Origin: an uncultured bacterium
Lineage (GTDB): Bacteria; Patescibacteriota; Minisyncoccia; UBA6257; 2-01-FULL-56-20
Length of the DNA stretch: 64,000 nt
Assembly: GCA_963844965.1 (NCBI GenBank)
Contig: CAWJQC010000004.1
Span: 1-64,000, forward strand
Direction of reading: 5' to 3'
The first letter of the stretch is position 1; every line of letters begins with the position of its first letter. The notes beneath the pieces were generated by a model. The model saw nothing but the letters and a program-made list of their open reading frames with translations. It did no database searches and was not told the DNA's origin. A program made the position numbers and the translations under genes. Below, one piece after another: positions 3,001 to 43,604 of this stretch.

Positions 3001-6000
3001 CGCCGCCAATCGTATAGATGTATCCGTTATAGGCGACCGCGGAATGGTTGGCGATACCGCTCAGAAGTTTATTGGAGTTCGTAGACCACGCTCCCACCGC
3101 GCCGTTGGAACTTATCTGTGCATAGAAAACGGAGGAAGTAGCCGGAGTTGTGGCGGGAGCGCCGGTGGTTGATGTGGCTCCTCCCGTCGTGTAGATGTAG
3201 CCGTTGTAGACGACGGCGGAATGCCCGTAAAGAGCCGCAGTTGCGGGCAGGGAGGCCGCGTTCGTCGCCCACGTGTTGTCCACGCGCGTGAGGGTGCTTG
3301 AGCCATATAGGCCCGAGTTGTCGGGGTCATAGGCCTGCGCGCCCCACCAGTATGTGCCGGCTGTCAAGGTGTACTGAAAAATGCCGCTTGTTCCCGTCGC
3401 CGAAGTGGCGGAATAGGCCGTGCTGTTACTGGAACCGGAGGAAGCGTTCTGCCCGCTCCAGTTGGTCTGGCTTGAGGGCTCGGTGCTTGAAGTTACAACA
3501 TCCGTACACGCCTCGTTCTGGTAGAGAACCCACTTGTACTGCACGTACTGGTTAGAGGTTGATGTCAAAGTCGCCGTCATTTTGAATGTCGTGGAAGCGG
3601 TGTCAACTGTCGTCGTCGCGGCCACCGGAAAATTCAGTATCGGCCGCCGCGGCTGCGGCAGGGAAAGCGAAAGCGCGGGGTAGACGTTGTAAGAGTCAAA
3701 CGCAACAAAGCTCGCGCTCGTTGCCTCCTGAAGCCGGAAGTAGTAGGTTCCGTTGTTACCGTAGACATCCTGCGGACCAGCGCGGATGGCGTATTCCACT
3801 TCCGTCCAGGTAGAGGTCGGACTGCTGTAGGAAAAACCTATATTGACGAGTCCCGTCGTGCTTGAGGACTGCTTTATTTGGCCGGAAGTGGAAGCATTGG
3901 CGTCCGCGGTAAGCTGGGCGGTCGTGGAAGCGCCATCCGTAAAATTCGTTGAGGAGGCGATAAGGAAAAGTTGGCTGGAAAAAGTGGAGGTTGTGGGGAC
4001 CAGTGTCCAGGAACCGGAAGTCGCGTTGTATTGGTACTGAAGCTGGAGTTTGGGCTGGGTCGTTGTGGCGCGGGTGTTCGTAACCTCAATGCGCAGACGG
4101 TAAACGTTGGCCGTTGAGGTTGCGCTGCCCGTAGCGTTCTCCGCCGCCGTCTGCCAGACGGAGCTGGTTTCCGAGCCGGTATCGTTCCGCCAGCGGTAGC
4201 GCGTCTGCGTAAGATTGGGGGCGGCAGTGTAGGTAATGACGATGATACCCTTTGTGCCGTTGCCGCCGGCATTGGCTCTTCCTCCTCCTCCTCCGGCGGC
4301 GCCGGTAGGCGCCGCCGTTACTACCTGCCACGTTGCTGTTCGCTCCTCCTCCTCCTCCTCCGGCGCCGCCCGTCTCGTTGTTATTGGGAGAGGTTGCCGT
4401 CCAGTCCGTGTGCGTGCCGCCGACGCTTCCCGCCGCTCCTCCGAGCGCGCCGCAACCGCCGTTTCCGCCACGGCTGCTGGGGGTTGAACTCCCGACGCCG
4501 CAGTAGCTGGCAGCGCCTCCGCCCCCGCCGCCGACTGAAGTGGCGTTTGATCCGGCGCCACCGCCGTATAATATACTTCCGATGGAGCTTATTGTCGCTC
4601 CTCCCGCGCCTCCGGCTCTTTTGCTGTCGGTAGTGCTTGCCGCGCCGAATCCTCCCGCAGCGCACATCGAGGCACCGGTGCCTCCGCATGTCGTAGTGCT
4701 TACAGAAGCGCCGAACATCGTAGCGGTGCCGGTAGTCGCTGGCGTGGTGGAAGCGCCCAAGCCAACGTCGCCTACCTTAATACTTACGGAGGAACCGGCG
4801 ACGAGAGAGGTGCTGCCGTTTGCTATTTCAGCGTAGGCGGCGCCGCCTCCTCCTGCGCCGTAGCGGCCGCTACTAGCGCTTGTTGCTTTGGAGGCGCCGC
4901 CGCCGCCGCCGATGCCCTCAATCGTGTTTGAAGCAAGGTTCCAGTCGGCGGGCACTATCCAGCTCGTAACGGCGGTAGAGGTCACAAAAACGACCGTGTT
5001 CGCCGTGCCGGCGTCCGCCGCTATCTGCCACTGCCTCGTTTCTATAGGACTTATAAGACCTATAGGACTTATAGGAGCCGCGGTGAGCGGGCCCAGGAGA
5101 TAGAACTCCGGGCTCACGTTCGGCGCCTGGAATTCGTACCAAAGCGTGTGACTCTCGCCGGCCCGCCAGTTGACCTGCCAGGAAATATTTTGCGTGTCCG
5201 AACCGCAATTCACGAGACAAGTACTGCCGGACACGAGTACCCGTGACCTGCGACAGAAAACCGTTATCCTGCGATGCGTTGCCCGTTCCTTGCGTAGTGC
5301 CATCCATTCCCTGTTCCGCAACCTGGAAACCTTTCGGGACGGTTTCCGTGACCGTTCCGGAGAAATCCGACTGCGCGGCCGCCTTGATCTCCATCCTGTA
5401 GAACGCGGGCGGGTAAATTCTCGTGCGACCGATACGCTCCACGTTCCACAGCGGCGAATCCTCAACCGTGAAGCTGTCGCTCGTCGTTCGTTCGCCGTTC
5501 GCCGTCGTCGCCGTGAGCGTTACATTATAAGTGCCGGTCGCGTCCGGCTTGAAGGTCGCGTAGTAGTCGGGGGCGTTGGTGACGGTGGACGCGCCGCACT
5601 CGGAACTGCGCGTGATGGTGCCGTCTTCGGTGCTCATGACCGCGACGCCTCCGCTTGGCAGACCTGCCTGCGCAGGCAGGCTTATCGTGATATCGGCCTC
5701 GGCGTCGCAAATCGTGTGCCCCATGTCGTCCAAAACCGAAAATCCGATTCCCGCCTCGTCGCCGTCGCTCAAACTGTAAACCGTTTTATTGAAATTCAGA
5801 GCGATGACGCCCCAACTGAAGTCGCTCTGCGAGACATATACAGTGCCGTCCTTGACTATGAAAACCTTCACGGTGTAGCGGCCGGGGCGGAAGGAACTCC
5901 TTTTCGGGAAAGTGAACGTCAAACTGCTTCCGTTTTCCGTTGCCGAAGGCGAAATGTCCGGCATGAAATTCCCGTCCGGGCCGAAAACCTGAATGGCGTA

Positions 6001-30180: not shown

Positions 30181-30216
30181 AAAGCGATTGATTTGCCCGG
30201 ATTTTTGGAGCTTGAC

Positions 30217-30245
30217 AAATCTTACCAATTTGCTATAATATACAC
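30217..30245 (+). promoter_or_regulatory. Near-consensus sigma70 promoter TTGACA-16-TATAAT
   Basis: cttgacaaatcttaccaatttgctataat. Confidence 0.5.
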
Positions 30246-30283
30246 AGTAAAAGTGGGGCACATCCGGGCGGAGGTTGAAGGTT

Positions 30284-30439
30284 ATATGAGTTTAATATCC
30301 AGAGTTTACAGTTCCACTTTCGGCTATTCCGAAAAGAAGCGGCGACGGTTAAAAGAAAAAAACCGCCAGAGGAAGCGTCGGGGACAGAAACCACTCAAAG
30401 AGCCGAAGCCTCAAATAGTAAAAATCGGCCGTTTTCTTT
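30284..30439 (+). CDS. Small highly basic protein (51 aa; MSLISRVYSSTFGYSEKKRRRLKEKNRQRKRRGQKPLKEPKPQIVKIGRFLS), followed by terminator at 30470-30500
   Basis: RBS ggaggttgaaggttatATG; hairpin cggctcggctattagccgagc plus T run downstream; ORF 30193..30444 in the track spans the promoter and is probably spurious. Confidence 0.35.
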
Positions 30440-30570
30440 CCTGACTTTCACGCAAGCAGAACACTACCGGCTCGGCTATTAGCCGAGCTTTCTTTTTCTC
30501 CAAAAACCTGCCTACCGGCCCGCTTCGCCATAGCTTTAACGAGGCGAGCAGGCAGGTTTGGGCGGGTAAC

Positions 30571-30600
30571 TTGCAAATATTTACTATCCGCGCTATAATG
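30571..30600 (+). promoter_or_regulatory. Near-consensus sigma70 promoter TTGCAA-17-TATAAT
   Basis: cttgcaaatatttactatccgcgctataat. Confidence 0.5.
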
Positions 30601-30649
30601 ATGCCAGCGTTTCAGTGGTTCAATTACTTCCGGAGCGTTGGAGGGTGAG

Positions 30650-30847
30650 ATGAGCAGAAGTATGTACGATTTTGACTTTCGACACTGTGAGGGCAAACCG
30701 TGCGGCAAAGAACCGCTCGGGATAGAACCGGAACCTAAAAAGAAATGTGTCGGCGCTGAATGCCACTTATATAGCTTGTGCGGCCTCGATAAGAAAACGC
30801 CCTGGGCCGAGCCGCTCGCGACAGGACCAGTCAGGTTGGCCGCATAA
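30650..30847 (+). CDS. Small Cys-rich protein (about 65 aa), followed by terminator at 30880-30905
   Basis: RBS ggagggtgagATG; CEGKPCG...CVGAECHLYSLCG; terminator gaccgccctcccggcggc plus T run. Confidence 0.4.
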   Translation: MSRSMYDFDFRHCEGKPCGKEPLGIEPEPKKKCVGAECHLYSLCGLDKKTPWAEPLATGPVRLAA

Positions 30848-30984
30848 ACACGAATGAATGGATAAAAAATAAAAAAGACCGCCCTCCCGGCGGCTTTGTT
30901 TTTTTGCTACACGTTACATGTTTCGTGTTACATGCCTACACCGATACACCGAGTTCACACCTCATCGGCGGGCAAGTCCGCCAA

Positions 30985-31762: not shown

Positions 31763-32340
31763 TTGCGTGGGCAGTCGTGAATTTTACGCGGAAATGAACT
31801 TCCGCGCCGATCTGCGTTATGTCTGCGCTTGTCTGCGGTTGAACTTCGCCCGATATCTGAAAAAGAGCTTTTTAGTTGTCCCAACCTATCATGAAACACG
31901 CAACCTGAAACATGGAACATTACAAAATGTTTCATGCTTCATGTTTTATACTTCGTGCTTCACGTCGACTAACTATTTGTTAATAGTTTAATTGATCCAC
32001 GGGCAGCTTCCGCTACTCGTGCCTTGTTACGACTTATCCCATGTCACCGAGCTTAAGCTAAATCGCCTGAGGCGATCTTCACCTACTCCCGGCTCCCTTG
32101 GATTGACGGGCAGTGAGTACAGGACTCGAGAACGTATTCACCGCAACATAGCTGATTTGCGATTACTAGCGATTCCAGCTTCATGAGGGCAGGTTGCAGC
32201 CCTCAATCCGAACTGAGACCGGGTTTGATGGGATTAGCTCCGCCTTGCGACTTCGCAACCCATTGTCCCGGCCATTGTAGCACGAGTGTAGCCCAGGGCA
32301 TCAGAGGGCCATGCTGATTTGACGTCATCCCCTCCTTCCT

Positions 32341-32439
32341 CCCCGCTCAGAAACCACGAGACATGAGACACACGTCACGACTCACAAATTTATTGTGCAT
32401 CGTGCTACGTGTATCGTGCATCATGAACTCTGAGCGGGG
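32341..32439 (-). other. 16S intervening sequence 1: about 100-nt hairpin insertion closed by an 11-bp stem (ccccgctcaga/tctgagcgggg) in the helix 39/40 region
   Basis: Sequence between the conserved 1100 and 1190 blocks replaced by a self-complementary insert. Confidence 0.7.
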
Positions 32440-32511
32440 CAGTTTCGCGTGACACTTGTAACACACGATAGGGGTTGCGCTCGTTACCCCACTTAAGGGA
32501 ACACTTCAAAG

Positions 32512-32542
<31 letters not shown>

Positions 32543-32669
32543 ACGTGACGTCCTTGAGAGAGGGCCCGCCTTTCGGCAAGCTTTCGTCACGAATTTCAAG
32601 CCCTGGTAAGGTTCCTCGCTTACTGTCGAATTAAACCTCATGCTCCACCGCTTGTGCGAGTCCCCGTCT

Positions 32670-32701
<32 letters not shown>

Positions 32702-33161
32702 TCCCAGGCGGCCGACTTAACGCGTTAGCTCCGCCACTCCGAGGGTCGATACTCGAAACAGCAAGTCGGCATCGTTTAGGGCGTGGACTACAAGGGTATC
32801 TAATCCTTTTTGCTCCCCACGCTTTCGCGTCTCAGAGTCAGGAAGGTCCCAGTGCCATGCCTTCGCCTTTGGTGTTCCGCACGATATCAACGGATTTCAC
32901 CCCTACACCGTGCGTTCCAGGCACCTCTAACCTCCTCTAGTTTCGCCGTATCTCCTGCACTTCCACCGTTAGGCGGTGGGATTTAACAGAAGACGCACGA
33001 AACCTCCTACACGCTCTTTACGCCCAATAAATCCGGATAACGCTCGAGGTCTACGTATTACCGCGGGTGCTGGCACGTAGTTACCAACCTCTTTCCGTAT
33101 GGTACGGTCACCCAGCACTTTTGGAACGAACTTTTCTAATTTGCTCAAATTTTTGGAGGTA

Positions 33162-33190
33162 TTGACAACAGCAATCACTTCTGCTATAAT
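33162..33190 (+). promoter_or_regulatory. Perfect consensus sigma70 promoter (TTGACA-17-TATAAT) inside IVS-2, oriented antisense to the rRNA
   Basis: ttgacaacagcaatcacttctgctataat. Confidence 0.6.
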
Positions 33191-33269
33191 GCCCATAGCA
33201 CATTGGGAGACCAACGTGCCGCACGTCGGGCCTCAGCCCTTGTGCAATTCCCAAAAGGAGAATTGATTT

Positions 33270-33461
33270 ATGCGTGCCAAATTCCCGTCACAAGTCACGG
33301 ATCGAATACTGGAAGCAGCCAAGAAAGAGTACTCCTTCCAGATCAATCATGCGGAATTAGGGCGGCGGCTGTTTACGCGCAAGCACTGTGGCACGAGAAT
33401 GGTTCAGGTAAAAGTCTTTCTGCAAGGAAGACAACAACCTGCCATACTCGGAAAACAATAA
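33270..33461 (+). CDS. 63-aa ORF inside 16S IVS-2, antisense to the rRNA (MRAKFPSQVTDRILEAAKKEYSFQINHAELGRRLFTRKHCGTRMVQVKVFLQGRQQPAILGKQ); has its own promoter, SD and terminator
   Basis: SD aaaaggagaa 6 nt before ATG; intrinsic terminator ctgccaccagaagctttccggtggcag plus TTTTTT at 33543-33575. Confidence 0.45.
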   Translation: MRAKFPSQVTDRILEAAKKEYSFQINHAELGRRLFTRKHCGTRMVQVKVFLQGRQQPAILGKQ

Positions 33462-33542
33462 CCACAGATGCACGGACGCCGCAGTATGCCCCGTTTGTTT
33501 GCTGGCATATGTCATGACTAACGACTAGCTGCCACCTTTCTA

Positions 33543-33575
33543 CTGCCACCAGAAGCTTTCCGGTGGCAGTTTTTT
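33543..33575 (+). terminator. Rho-independent terminator of the IVS-2 mini-gene
   Basis: 11-bp GC-rich stem followed by a T6 run. Confidence 0.6.
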
Positions 33576-34434
33576 AAATCCAAAAATTTGAGCAAATTAG
33601 TTTTCCCGCCAAAAGTGCTGGGTTCTTCCCATACTACCGCAGTTTACAACCCGAAGGCCTTCTTCCTGCACGCGGCGTCGCTCGATCAGGCTTTCGCCCA
33701 TTGTCGAATATTCTCGGCTACTGCCACCCGTAGGTGTACGAACCGTTTCTCAGTTTCGTCGTTGGGGGTCAGGCTCTCACCTCCCCTACCGGTCATAGCC
33801 TTGGTAGGCCGTTACCCTGCCAACTAGCTGATCGGACCTAGGCCGCTCTTGGAGCGTCTTGCGACTTTGGATGCGAATGGCTTTCGCCCCCGCATCATCA
33901 TCAGGAATTACCCCGCCTTTCGGCGAGCTGTGCCCGTCTCCAAGGTACGTTACCAAGGTGTTACTAACTCGTTCGCCGCTCACTATTTTCCTTGCGGAAA
34001 ATAGTTCGCTCAACTTGCATGCCTTATCCACGCCGCCAGCGTTCATCCTGGACCAGGATCAAATCCTCAGTAAAAATCGCGCATTTATTCAATACGCGAG
34101 ATTGTGCGCCATGCATGACGCCCAAACTCGCGCATCTCACTCGTGCGTGAGTTCATACCGCGATTGATTTATTGATCTCGGTTTATTTCAATTCCAAACC
34201 GAAAAATGAATCTTATTGGGACAACTAAAAAACTCTTTTTTATTTACTTTTCTCATATTAATTTTTCAATCTGCAGTCGGCGCAGTCCTTTACCCCGCAC
34301 ATTACCTTCGGTAATAACGGGGCGAGCAACAAAACATCCCCCCTACACATTCTAAACCTCAGAAGAATGTGTAGGGCGGATGTCTTTAGACACACCATAA
34401 TATTGAGATATCAAACCTATCCGTTTTCCATATT

Positions 34435-34467
34435 GATAATTATATTCTACCCACAACCCTTGTCAAG
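34435..34467 (-). promoter_or_regulatory. Candidate rRNA promoter (TTGACA-16-TATAAT on the minus strand), about 370 nt upstream of the 16S 5' end
   Basis: Reverse complement reads cttgacaagggttgtgggtagaatataat. Confidence 0.4.
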
Positions 34468-34497
34468 CACCTATGATTGTGTATAATCTATAGCATT

Positions 34498-36724: not shown

Positions 36725-37126
36725 TCAGGGCGCAACATTCAACAATGTCTTGATTTGATCGACCGTCTTGTTCAGATCGTCGGATTTTTTGATGTACCCA
36801 TCGGCGCCCAATTCCCCGGCAAAGCGACGGTCAATTTCCTGTATTTCCCGCCGCGGATCGCCCAAACTTGATAGAAAAACCACTTTTATATTTTTGGTTT
36901 CGGGGTCACTCTTCAACCGCAATACTGCGTCGGCGCCGCTTACTCCCGGCATCTTCACGTCCATTAAAATTAAATCCGGCTTCAATTCTTTAGCCATTTT
37001 TATCCCGCTCTCACCGTCCCCAGCCGTTTCCACTCTAAATCCAGCACTGGTCAACTTCATGCCAAAAATCTCCAGAAAGTCCGGCTCATCGTCAACAATC
37101 AATATCAAGGGTTGTTTATCTGTCAT
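36725..37126 (-). CDS. Response regulator, receiver domain only
   Basis: LILIVDDEPDFLEIF...DLILMDVKMPGVSG. Confidence 0.8.
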   Translation of the reverse strand: MTDKQPLILIVDDEPDFLEIFGMKLTSAGFRVETAGDGESGIKMAKELKPDLILMDVKMPGVSGADAVLRLKSDPETKNIKVVFLSSLGDPRREIQEIDRRFAGELGADGYIKKSDDLNKTVDQIKTLLNVAP

Positions 37127-37337
37127 ATTACCTGCTTTAATTATACAATATCATTATATCATAATTGGCACTAAACACGGGAAGCGTGCCGAAACGCGTA
37201 GAGCGACAGCCGCGCCGGCACAATCCCCATTTACGAAACCATGAACAAAATAATCCTAGAAATCCGGGCTGGAACGGGCTTGCCCGCCATAGCCAAATTT
37301 TATAAATAATTCAAGTACGAAGTGGTGCAACAAAAGC

Positions 37338-38057
37338 ATGACAAATAAAGTTATTTTGGAAATAAGGGCGGGGGCGGGAGGTGACGAAGCCGCTATCTTT
37401 GCGGGCGATCTCGCGCGAATGTACCAACGCTACGCCGCAAGGCGCGGCTGGGGATTCGCGACGCTTGACTCAAACGAAACATCGCTCGGCGGCTATAAAA
37501 CATTTATCGCCGAGATAAAAGGAGAAAATGTTTATGACGCGCTGAAAAACGAATCTGGCGTCCATCGCGTCCAGCGCGTGCCGAAAACCGAGAAATCGGG
37601 ACGTGTACACACCTCAACCGCTTCAGTGGCTGTGATTCCCGAAGTGGAAGCAAAACTGGTTGATGTCAACCCGAACGACTTGGAAGTGACATTTTCTCGC
37701 GCCGGCGGCCCCGGCGGCCAGAACGTCAACAAGGTTGAAACGGCCGTAAGGATCTTGCACAAACCGACCGGCATCGTCGTTTCCTGCCGTGAAGAACGCT
37801 CACAGAACGCCAACCGCGAAAAAGCTCTGGAAATTCTGCGCGCGAAATTATTCGAACTTCAGCGCGAACAAGCAGCCGGCAAAGTAAGCGAAATCCGCCG
37901 CGAACAAATCGGCTCCGCCGAACGCGCGGAAAAGATACGCACATATAATTTCCCAGAAGACAGAATCACCGACCACCGCCTCGGAAAGAAGTTTCACAAC
38001 ATAGAGAAAATTCTTGACGGGGATTTGGAACCGATAGTCAAGGCTTTCCAAAAATAA
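37338..38057 (+). CDS. prfA: Class I peptide chain release factor, RF1-like, lacking the N-terminal domain; PKT in place of PAT
   Basis: GGQ motif ([10 protein letters not shown]), [14 protein letters not shown]; only 239 aa and only 207 nt of upstream space; a pseudo-start duplicate MNKIILEIRAGTG lies at 37241. Confidence 0.7.
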
Positions 38058-43096: not shown

Positions 43097-43604
43097 TTTT
43101 GTTGCTGGCAATCCGTAAGCCGGATTCTGTCGCGCCTGCCTGTCGGCAGACGATGCGATCATTTATCTGGGCCCTTGATTGCTCGCGGGCTCAAGCGGCA
43201 CTTCCACCTCATCGGCGGACACGGCCTTGCACCCAGTAAGGATTTAGCCGTTTCATCTCCACTTTTTTATCCCTATGGCGGAGCTGGACCGACTAGCTTG
43301 GGATTGGGTCCGTCCGACTTTTTCAAATCGGACCGTTTCTGCTCGCACCTCTATTCTTACGAACGACGGCTGTTAGCCGCTACTATTTTATCCCTCCCCA
43401 GTTTTGCCAGTAATGTCACTGGCAAAACTGGGGAGGGATGGTGTCCGGACTTTCCTCCCTACATTTTCTAGAATTTTAAGAAAATGTAGGGCGATCGCCT
43501 AGATTGCCAGCTAACTACAGTGTAACATTCTATCAAAAAAAATCAAGTCCGGAAGCAGTGTTCGCGACTAGCCGGTGATATTTTAATTCACGGCGGACAT
43601 ACCT

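Follow-up and report, generated by a model that had tools for sequence, protein, structure and literature searches.

Insertions in bacterial ribosomal RNA (rRNA) genes are usually seen as introns, as carriers of homing endonucleases or as inert spacers excised by RNase III. A different kind of insertion is known from phages, where 'morons' (Juhala et al. 2000; Hendrix et al.) are reported to be autonomous promoter-gene-terminator units lying between other genes. Among rRNA insertions, the S23p intervening sequences (IVSs) of the 23S rRNA genes of Coxiella burnetii, Leptospira and Brucella (Pfam 23S_rRNA_IVP) are stem-closed inserts bearing an open reading frame (ORF) and are excised by RNase III; the ORF lies on the rRNA sense strand, with no promoter of its own and a weak Shine-Dalgarno (SD) motif (PMC4990558). 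Most rRNA insertions of the candidate phyla radiation (CPR) are group I/II introns or encode homing endonucleases (LAGLIDADG, GIY-YIG), and those of 500-1000 bp with neither intron features nor a recognised ORF have been left uncharacterised (PMC11270868). Here we describe an insertion in helix 17 of the 16S rRNA gene of an uncultured Patescibacteriota bacterium (contig CAWJQC010000004.1, of which positions 1 to 64,000 were analysed and are referred to as the window), together with the gene that it carries on the opposite strand. With moderate confidence, we read this insertion as an IVS whose loop holds a moron-like, self-contained and probably mobile gene module. The initial annotation of the window had called such an antisense cassette an undescribed arrangement, and we agree, as our limited literature search found no description of an antisense self-contained gene cassette within an rRNA insertion; the text of the CPR survey (PMC11270868) mentions neither antisense orientation nor an internal promoter.

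Infernal cmscan identified a full-length bacterial small subunit (SSU) rRNA gene of 2090 nt, compared with the 1533 positions of the Rfam model. The excess length is due to two insertions, of 500 nt in helix 17 and 87 nt in helix 40, in agreement with the earlier estimate of about 2.08 kb with two insertions. The 500 unaligned nucleotides fall in the distal helix 17 hairpin (GAAC-CCAGCA, the insert, then CUGGGUGACC), the 16S sequence being uninterrupted on both sides, and this alignment fixes the boundaries of the IVS (Table 1). The long stem that had been thought to close the larger insertion was also found: it consists of two pairs of perfectly complementary arms (15/15 and 22/22), which on the rRNA-sense strand form the closing stem in both the minimum free energy (MFE) and the centroid folds (-228 kcal/mol, z = -9.3), and none of 100 shuffles folded as well. 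No group I or group II intron family reached the Rfam gathering score in the window, so that the IVS is no recognised self-splicing intron, and the terminator scan found no terminator-like site on the rRNA strand within it.

Other features of this 16S rRNA gene are recorded here for completeness. The 87 extra nucleotides in the helix 40 loop (~32345-32440, minus strand) form a nearly perfect hairpin (-61.9 kcal/mol, z -8) without an ORF; the likeness of its stem CCCCGCTCAGA to one end of a related element (locus L005, see below) was set aside as an effect of chance or of the native helix. At the 515F universal primer site (~33060-33082, 16S model ~505-526) the sequence GUGCCAGCACCCGCGGUAAUAC carries a C in place of the consensus G, and this mismatch, together with the insertions, means that standard amplicon surveys could miss or mis-size the organism. 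The gene is solitary, with no 23S, 5S or spacer tRNA detected by Rfam in the 64 kb, and its perfect consensus promoter (34466-34439, minus strand) and that of rpmE (34460-34487, plus strand) stand back to back.

On the plus strand, opposite to the rRNA, the IVS carries the perfect TTGACA-17-TATAAT promoter, the AAGGAG-type SD and the stem plus T6 terminator that the initial annotation had listed, and together they appear to make up a self-contained antisense transcription unit (Table 1). Perfect TTGACA-N16-18-TATAAT sites occur 3 times in the 64 kb, one of them being the 16S promoter, compared with 0 in 100 shuffles; thus the IVS promoter is not a chance match. At a looser threshold, 3 promoter-like sites were found vs 3.1 expected, and consensus scans alone are therefore no evidence. 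The left-end core GCTCAAATTTTTGGA lies directly 5′ of the -35 hexamer, where an UP element would be placed. Transcription would start near 33197, and the predicted leader opens with two tandem copies of a 5′-terminal hairpin that is single in other loci, followed by a small hairpin that presents the SD (33255-33260), 9 nt before the ATG. The terminator hairpin (33542-33570, with 13-bp arms and one A-C mismatch) runs into a T6 tract that was read from the sequence, as a simple terminator scanner did not list the site, probably on account of the mismatch.

Table 1. Features of the helix 17 insertion and the second module in the window, and loci of the relatives of the encoded protein
Feature	Position or locus	Strand	Remarks
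16S rRNA gene, insertion host	31985-34074	-	Rfam RF00177, 1347 bits, model 1-1533
Intervening sequence (IVS), 500 nt, helix 17 terminal loop	33116-33615	-	cmscan alignment, SSU model ~455-465
Outer stem arm, left	33110-33124		Pairs with 33609-33623, 15/15; contains native h17 CCAG/CUGG
Outer stem arm, right	33609-33623		15/15 complementary; closing stem in MFE fold
Inner stem arm, left terminal inverted repeat	33136-33157		22/22 complementary; core GCTCAAATTTTTGGA at 33143-33157
Inner stem arm, right terminal inverted repeat	33579-33600		Core 33579-33593; 24 nt TTTTTTAAATCCAAAAATTTGAGC = 33570-33593
Sigma-70 promoter	33162-33190	+	TTGACA-17-TATAAT, TG extended -10; 12/12 consensus match
5′ leader (predicted)	33197-33264	+	Two tandem 5′-terminal hairpins 33198-33219, 33221-33245; SD hairpin 33246-33264
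63-aa ORF as first called	33270-33461	+	Residues 1-50 family-homologous; 51-63 out-of-frame read-through
Full gene remnant	33270-33528	+	Frame 0 33270-33419; +1 frame 33421-33525; stop TAG 33526-33528
Intrinsic terminator (predicted)	33542-33575	+	Hairpin 33542-33570; T6 33570-33575
Second module	30201-30506	+	ATTTTTGGAG, TTGACA-16-TATAAT 30212-30239, SD, ORF 30286-30444, terminator, CTCCAAAAA
P0003	L001		Bounded by related end pair AAAATGTTTGGAG / CTCCAAACATT
P0004	L002		Between rpsT and uvrB
P0005	L005-L007		Antisense within 23S rRNA gene, hairpin loop, LSU (large subunit) model ~681-697
P0006, P0008	L008, L014		Convergent with same tRNA-Tyr
P0007	L009		Convergent with ruvB
P0008, P0009	L014, L015		Directly after 3′ end of IS30-like transposase gene

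The 63-aa ORF that had first been called within the cassette is present; however, it is not the whole gene. Its homologues are 87-92 aa long, and their C-terminus is found in the window in the +1 frame. Three-frame translation and a tblastn search of the window with the family showed that the +1 frame continues where the homology of the ORF stops, reading KSFCKEDNNLPYSENNNHRCTDAAVCPVCLLAYVMTND up to a stop codon and including the conserved AVCPVC C-terminus. One extra base near 33410-33420, modelled as C33420, accounts for the shift, and its removal restores an 85-aa protein (MRAKFP...VQVKVF joined to CKEDNNLPYSENNNHRCTDAAVCPVCLLAYVMTND) which aligns end to end with the family. Because the extra base lies outside any long homopolymer and the downstream frame is intact and conserved, the mutation seems recent, and the window copy is most likely a recently inactivated pseudogene, a sequencing error being possible. 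We set aside programmed +1 frameshifting at GUC-UUU-C-UGC as very unlikely, since the A site holds neither a slow nor a stop codon, a closely spaced SD-like stimulator is lacking, and no shift occurs in any of the 8 other members.

A word-indexed search of 5.8 billion proteins with the 63-aa query matched only the ORF itself. Using phmmer against 1.84 billion representatives, 5 homologues of 87-91 aa were retrieved (E 3e-10 to 4e-4, 42-61% identity over residues 1-51), all of which end in a conserved ...D-x-A-(V/I)-C-P-(V/I)-C... that the 63-aa ORF is without. A profile search of the 5.8 billion proteins brought the family to 9 clusters in all (P0001-P0009, E down to 1e-36), one of which includes the copy in a 23S rRNA gene. 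The ORF is thus part of a genuine conserved gene, as matches at this level are not chance. None of the clusters carries a name or a Pfam domain, and the only match of a scan of JGI metagenome contigs (L016) was rejected as spurious, being a eukaryote-like sequence with 38% identity over 42 aa and no CPxC.

The family proteins are basic (pI 8.9-9.7) and share the C-terminus ...LPYSENN...DAAVCPVC.... In the family alignment the invariant residues include C73, P74 and C76 as well as a (H/C)(C/H) pair at 39-40, and these conserved Cys/His residues suggest a putative metal site formed by the CPxC and the pair. In 28 of 28 pairwise comparisons, divergence at nonsynonymous sites (pN 0.31-0.50) was lower than that at synonymous sites (pS 0.66-0.92); the family protein is under purifying selection, with saturated synonymous sites. 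The AlphaFold2 model, built on the nine-sequence alignment, has a pLDDT of 89.8 and predicts a helix at 7-20, a long beta-hairpin at 27-51 and short strands around CPVC. No meaningful match for the family was obtained in Pfam and NCBIfam (E up to 10), PADLOC, PHROGs or the PDB sequence profiles, and Foldseek returned nothing with E < 0.3 from PDB and BFVD. A toxin, one of the roles that the initial annotation had offered, finds no support in any of these results, and no family member was found in viral contigs, phage records or plasmids.

The surroundings of the gene are conserved along with the protein. Eight independent family loci were compared (including L001, L002, L005, L008, L009, L014 and L015), and in 8/8 a single gene with its own promoter and a terminator-like hairpin, in the same relative positions, gives the layout of a moron. 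A promoter-like site stands at the same distance in all eight, with TTGACA as the -35 hexamer in 6/8, and the putative transcript start opens straight into a hairpin (AGCAYGTCGGG...CCCTTGTGC), followed by AATTC...AAAGGAGAATTG and then the ATG. The 5′-terminal hairpin is predicted, and an SD is found, in every locus, while the leader motif TTGTGCAATTC is kept in six. In L005 (CGAGAGA/TCTCTCG), L002 (GCGT/ACGC) and L001 the stem of the 5′ hairpin is made of other bases that still pair; the hairpins were folded individually, as the MAFFT alignment sets the L005 stem out of register, and the individual z-scores, of -0.2 to -2.8, are weak. After the stop codon, within ~20-60 nt and at the same place, there is in 7/8 loci a hairpin with a T-rich tract; in L002 the predicted terminator is weak, its T tract being interrupted (CCTTTATTTT), and the scanner lists none. 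As promoter, leader and terminator are kept across loci, having a self-contained expression cassette characterises the family as a whole, and not the window alone.

The genes that flank the relatives are cellular, and the contexts are unrelated to one another (Table 1). The copy within a 23S rRNA gene is bounded by GCTCAAATTTTTGGA ... TCCAAAAATTTGAGC, the 15-nt core (L005 643-657) being identical to that of the window, and the 24 nt of the right end, TTTTTTAAATCCAAAAATTTGAGC, are likewise identical (L005 1056-1079). Despite these identical ends, the synonymous sites of the two genes are saturated (pS 0.80). A related core is found in the terminal inverted repeats of L001, at which a methyltransferase-like C-terminus follows the element, and no restored ORF was found across the junction.

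Signs of past movement are present at two further places. At L005 1786-1826 there is a cargo-less hairpin (GCTCAAATTTTTGRA), inserted in another 23S hairpin (LSU model ~151-178) and absent from L006 and L007, which has the same ends and a T6 remnant (...CCCGCTCAAATTTTTGGAG-AAAAAAGTTATC-TTCAAAAATTTGAGCGGG...) and looks like an internal-deletion derivative. In L002, which is without inverted ends, a perfect 27-bp direct repeat (TATTTACACCTCAACGTCGTCTTCGCT, 2876-2902 / 3402-3428) stands on either side of a 499-bp gene-bearing insert; it duplicates the last codons of uvrB, the right copy being the true uvrB 3′ end. Three assemblies share a segment of ~1.37 kb, made of 23S sequence and element, at 100% identity (L005 1-1370, L006 1-1367 and L007 27-1396); past this point, in the 23S 5′ domain, their identity falls abruptly to roughly 70%. 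This pattern fits interspecies gene conversion or homing and chimeric metagenome assembly equally well. With the same-ended cassette antisense in 23S and the relatives free-standing between genes, the 'selfish IVS-borne gene', another option of the initial annotation, is the one that fits best.

Several observations at these loci stand apart from this argument. L007 has a palindromic 23S insertion of its own at 1657-1700 (ATCATTTAATATTTTTGGGCAATTGCTCAAAAATATTAAATGAT), absent from L005 and L006, with A/T-rich ...TTTTTGG / CAAAAA... stretches akin to the module ends. The IS30-like transposase gene of L014 (96-1053, split in two ORFs) and L015 (1-198) ends 10-20 nt before the cassette promoter; by eye its ends are nearly identical in the two loci, and the cassettes are strongly diverged (pN 0.31, pS 0.70). 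L002 and L009 belong to unrelated lineages, and in both a DNA-repair helicase gene stands tail to tail with the family gene (in one case uvrB, ruvA being nearby, and in the other ruvB), which may be coincidence as the loci are few. A 21-nt inverted repeat around the L014 cassette was discarded as an effect of chance or of a native helix.

The design is not confined to the IVS either, contrary to what the initial annotation implied in locating the arrangement there, although a self-contained cassette is indeed found at that place. In the ordinary intergenic region 3′ of a gene for a MacB/FtsX-type permease, outside the rRNA, a second module was identified (Table 1). Its promoter, the third of the perfect consensus sites in the 64 kb, shares TTGACAA and TGCTATAAT with the IVS promoter, and its terminator hairpin (30470-30488) and T-run are directly followed by the 9-mer CTCCAAAAA (30498-30506), which is an inverted copy of the upstream motif ATTTTTGGAG. 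The ORF encodes an Arg/Lys-rich protein of 52 aa, which is different from the IVS gene and has no detectable homologue. The same 'chassis' with other cargo supports a class of such modules. A 9-fold enrichment of ATTTTTGGA in the window was not taken as further evidence, since it is partly coding sequence, an aminoacyl-tRNA synthetase motif. Next to the second module there is a third small stand-alone gene (30571-30905) with TTGCAA-17-TATAAT, a Cys-rich ORF of ~65 aa (30650-30847, MSRSMYDFDFRHCEGKPCGK...) and a strong terminator, and the region of 30.2-30.9 kb is thus a small-gene cluster.

Based on these results, we propose the following scheme for the window element. The module would consist, in this order, of an inverted end, a consensus promoter, a hairpin leader, an SD, a gene of ~86 aa, an intrinsic terminator and the other inverted end. 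In the rRNA sense, the ends and the flanking stem would pair as an interrupted 15 + 22-bp (37-bp) duplex, and RNase III would cut it, by analogy with the stem-closed IVSs of Coxiella (PMC4990558), the insert thereby being lost from the pre-16S rRNA. The 16S rRNA would then be fragmented or trimmed yet functional, in the manner known from classical bacterial IVSs. The module would transcribe itself, on the opposite strand, between ~33197 and 33575, from a promoter as near consensus as the rRNA promoter, into a predicted ~380-nt transcript that ends at its own terminator. Being confined to the IVS, this transcript would never overlap the mature 16S rRNA. No orientation but antisense is expected to be tolerated, since in the sense orientation the hairpin and T6 would stop rRNA transcription, and antisense is the orientation in both rRNA cases (the window 16S and the 23S of L005-L007). 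Speculatively, as the cassette and the rRNA promoter are convergent, the cassette could be expressed in inverse relation to rRNA synthesis. The weakest step of the scheme concerns the protein, which would serve the module (by mobility, maintenance or nucleic-acid-binding autoregulation) and not the ribosome.

Several findings weigh against this scheme. The window copy is frameshifted, so that it may be non-functional and yield no protein. Nothing among known domains or folds points to a nuclease, a recombinase or a DNA binder, and in view of this lack of informative matches the link of the family to mobility is a guess. The element encodes no transposase: its sole ORF, of 85-92 aa, has no transposase signature, and the IS30-like neighbour occurs only in L014 and L015. 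No target-site duplication was found at the two rRNA sites (window and L005), and no inverted ends at L002, L008, L009, L014 and L015. The 'terminal repeats' themselves may be a promoter element and its complement, kept for RNA pairing, instead of recombination sites, because the left end coincides with the UP-element-like motif at another host promoter. At L008 and L014, which are orthologous loci since they have the same tRNA-Tyr neighbour, the gene behaves as a stable, vertically inherited resident. Finally, the family is tiny, with no member detected in 185,579 species-representative genomes in two scans.

In one alternative, the family gene would be a small host gene of an ordinary kind, for instance for a stress-induced or regulatory zinc-binding protein, with no active mobility, that reached an rRNA expansion hairpin through a rare event of illegitimate recombination, its ends being a host promoter element of UP type and the complement selected only to keep the rRNA stem. 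The vertical inheritance of L008 and L014 beside the same tRNA-Tyr speaks for it; ATTTTTGGAG, TTGACAA and TGCTATAAT do recur at another strong promoter of the window, and several small genes of this genome stand alone with strong promoters and terminators. Nevertheless, we regard this explanation as improbable. It leaves two independent rRNA insertions, in 16S and in 23S, sharing identical ends of 15 and 24 nt, as well as a cargo-less derivative and a perfect 27-bp direct repeat, and the very patchy distribution (9 clusters in a set of 5.8 billion proteins, and no member in the GTDB representatives) argues against a conserved housekeeping role.

A bolder claim, which we consider to have an equally small chance, is that the module represents a new class of miniature autonomous elements, with a small Cys/His protein that itself recognises the ends or the hairpin-loop targets and mediates insertion or homing. 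The rRNA hairpin loops would be safe havens for them, because the ends double as the RNase III excision stem. If true, no smaller self-mobilising DNA element would be known, and a new nucleic-acid-processing fold would come with it.

Slightly less likely again is the narrower proposal that the ~86-aa protein acts as a homing endonuclease or transposition protein of a new and very small type, which recognises the inverted ends or the empty hairpin-loop target and mobilises the module directly. At 86 aa it would be far below the size of any endonuclease or transposase known to us, and Pfam and NCBIfam gave no LAGLIDADG, GIY-YIG, HNH, DDE or recombinase signature. The identical ends across saturated divergence speak for it, as do the solo-end derivative at a second 23S site, the direct repeat around the L002 insert and the presence of the element in both 16S and 23S genes, although the inverted ends are absent from most copies. 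The shared ~1.37 kb of L005-L007 could be a co-conversion tract, but chimeric metagenome assembly explains it equally well. The basic protein with its conserved (H/C)(C/H)...CPxC cluster would suit the role, and homing endonucleases are common in the rRNA insertions of CPR bacteria (PMC11270868).

The functional product could also be the RNA. A strongly transcribed antisense RNA, perfectly complementary to the IVS, would pair with the pre-16S rRNA, and the long duplex would bring in RNase III, by which the insert is removed or degraded, with an ORF that is incidental or vestigial, much as a cis-antisense RNA of Helicobacter pylori pairs with an rRNA precursor and RNase III cuts the duplex (PMC6582327). 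In the window the ORF is broken while promoter, leader and terminator are intact, and the promoter is very strong by consensus with its transcript confined to the IVS. Yet the IVS already has an intramolecular 37-bp stem, and at six or more non-rRNA sites, where there is nothing to pair with, the gene is found again with the same set of promoter, leader and terminator. An antisense regulator of rRNA maturation, as the initial annotation had put it, also fails to explain why a protein with a confident predicted fold is under purifying selection outside rRNA genes, and we see this as a minor possibility, a little behind the preceding ones. As for chance matches in a variable region or an assembly artefact joining foreign DNA into the 16S gene, the contig is an assembled one and loose-threshold promoter sites are as frequent as expected, but the 12/12 promoters (3 vs 0 expected), the homologues with E down to 1e-36, the insertion exactly in a hairpin loop of an otherwise uninterrupted 16S and the same design in the 23S rRNA of an independent assembly make this extremely improbable.

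Two other genes of the window, unrelated to the module, deserve mention. The ORF at 37338-38057 (region ~37000-38057) matches the PCRF domain only from profile position 100 and then the RF-1 domain; its N-terminal part must lie in another frame, which probably reflects the natural +1 programmed frameshift of prfB (RF2). A bacterial class A RNase P RNA at 43101-43510 (minus strand) is very divergent and scored 100.2 bits against a gathering score of 100.

Returning to the self-contained and probably mobile module, its likeness to described systems is partial in each case. Among antisense transcription units at rRNA genes, yeast TAR1, a protein gene antisense to the 25S rRNA (PMC3026818), was the only other protein gene antisense to rRNA found in our limited literature search. 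TAR1 is a eukaryotic gene, transcribed by Pol II, that overlaps the mature 25S, whereas the window gene lies in a putatively excisable insert of a bacterial 16S gene with no overlap with the mature rRNA. The cis-antisense RNA to the 23S-5S precursor of H. pylori (PMC6582327) resembles the predicted window transcript in being complementary to a discarded part of the precursor and a potential RNase III substrate; in contrast, it is non-coding and overlaps the leader, while the window RNA is a predicted mRNA for a conserved protein in an internal insertion.

With regard to mobile units, the module is like a moron in that one small gene stands between a sigma-70 promoter and an intrinsic terminator of its own and the whole is inserted where it spares its neighbours; it is unlike one in being bounded by inverted repeats inside an rRNA gene and in having no phage, viral-contig or plasmid match. 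Miniature inverted-repeat elements (Correia/NEMIS, RPE, ERIC) are non-coding by definition. The module shares with them the small size, terminal inverted repeats that fold as an RNA hairpin, a cargo-less copy (L005 1786-1826) and ends that overlap promoter elements, but it carries an expressed-looking gene, shows no target-site duplication at the rRNA sites and is known from a handful of copies only.

Like the rRNA insertions of CPR bacteria, it is long and found in 16S and 23S genes, with several insertions per gene, and one kind of element turns up at various sites and in more than one lineage. It differs from their introns and homing-endonuclease carriers in matching no Rfam intron family, no LAGLIDADG, GIY-YIG, HNH or His-Cys box domain and, at a significant level, no known structure. 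Annotation pipelines commonly skip genes inside rRNA genes; if they do so here, such genes are undercounted, and the long rRNA insertions that are considered 'uncharacterised' may hide more of them. The family context makes the finding more interesting than a single locus is. The family combines a confident predicted fold without known relatives with a link to inverted ends, direct repeats and hairpin loops.

The closest parallel is with the S23p IVS, which is likewise an insert of a few hundred nucleotides in an rRNA hairpin loop, with an inverted-repeat processing stem and one small, decay-prone ORF, and which is regarded as selfish and horizontally spread (PMC4990558). Here, unlike the sense-oriented S23p ORF, the gene lies antisense and brings a consensus promoter, an SD and a terminator of its own; its host is helix 17 of the 16S rRNA instead of helix 25 or 45 of the 23S rRNA, and its product, from a family without a Pfam match, is predicted to fold as one helix plus a beta-sheet instead of the four-helix bundle of S23p. 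Judging from its sequence, the window element thus appears to be a kind of ORF-bearing IVS with a new protein family in antisense. Its design would let the host discard the element from the rRNA while the element still expresses itself, and in its orientation, its terminator and the use of its ends as a processing stem it offers a model for a genetic parasite colonising the most constrained genes of the cell. To the introns, homing-endonuclease carriers and excised spacers, a complete antisense gene may therefore be added as a third content of rRNA insertions.

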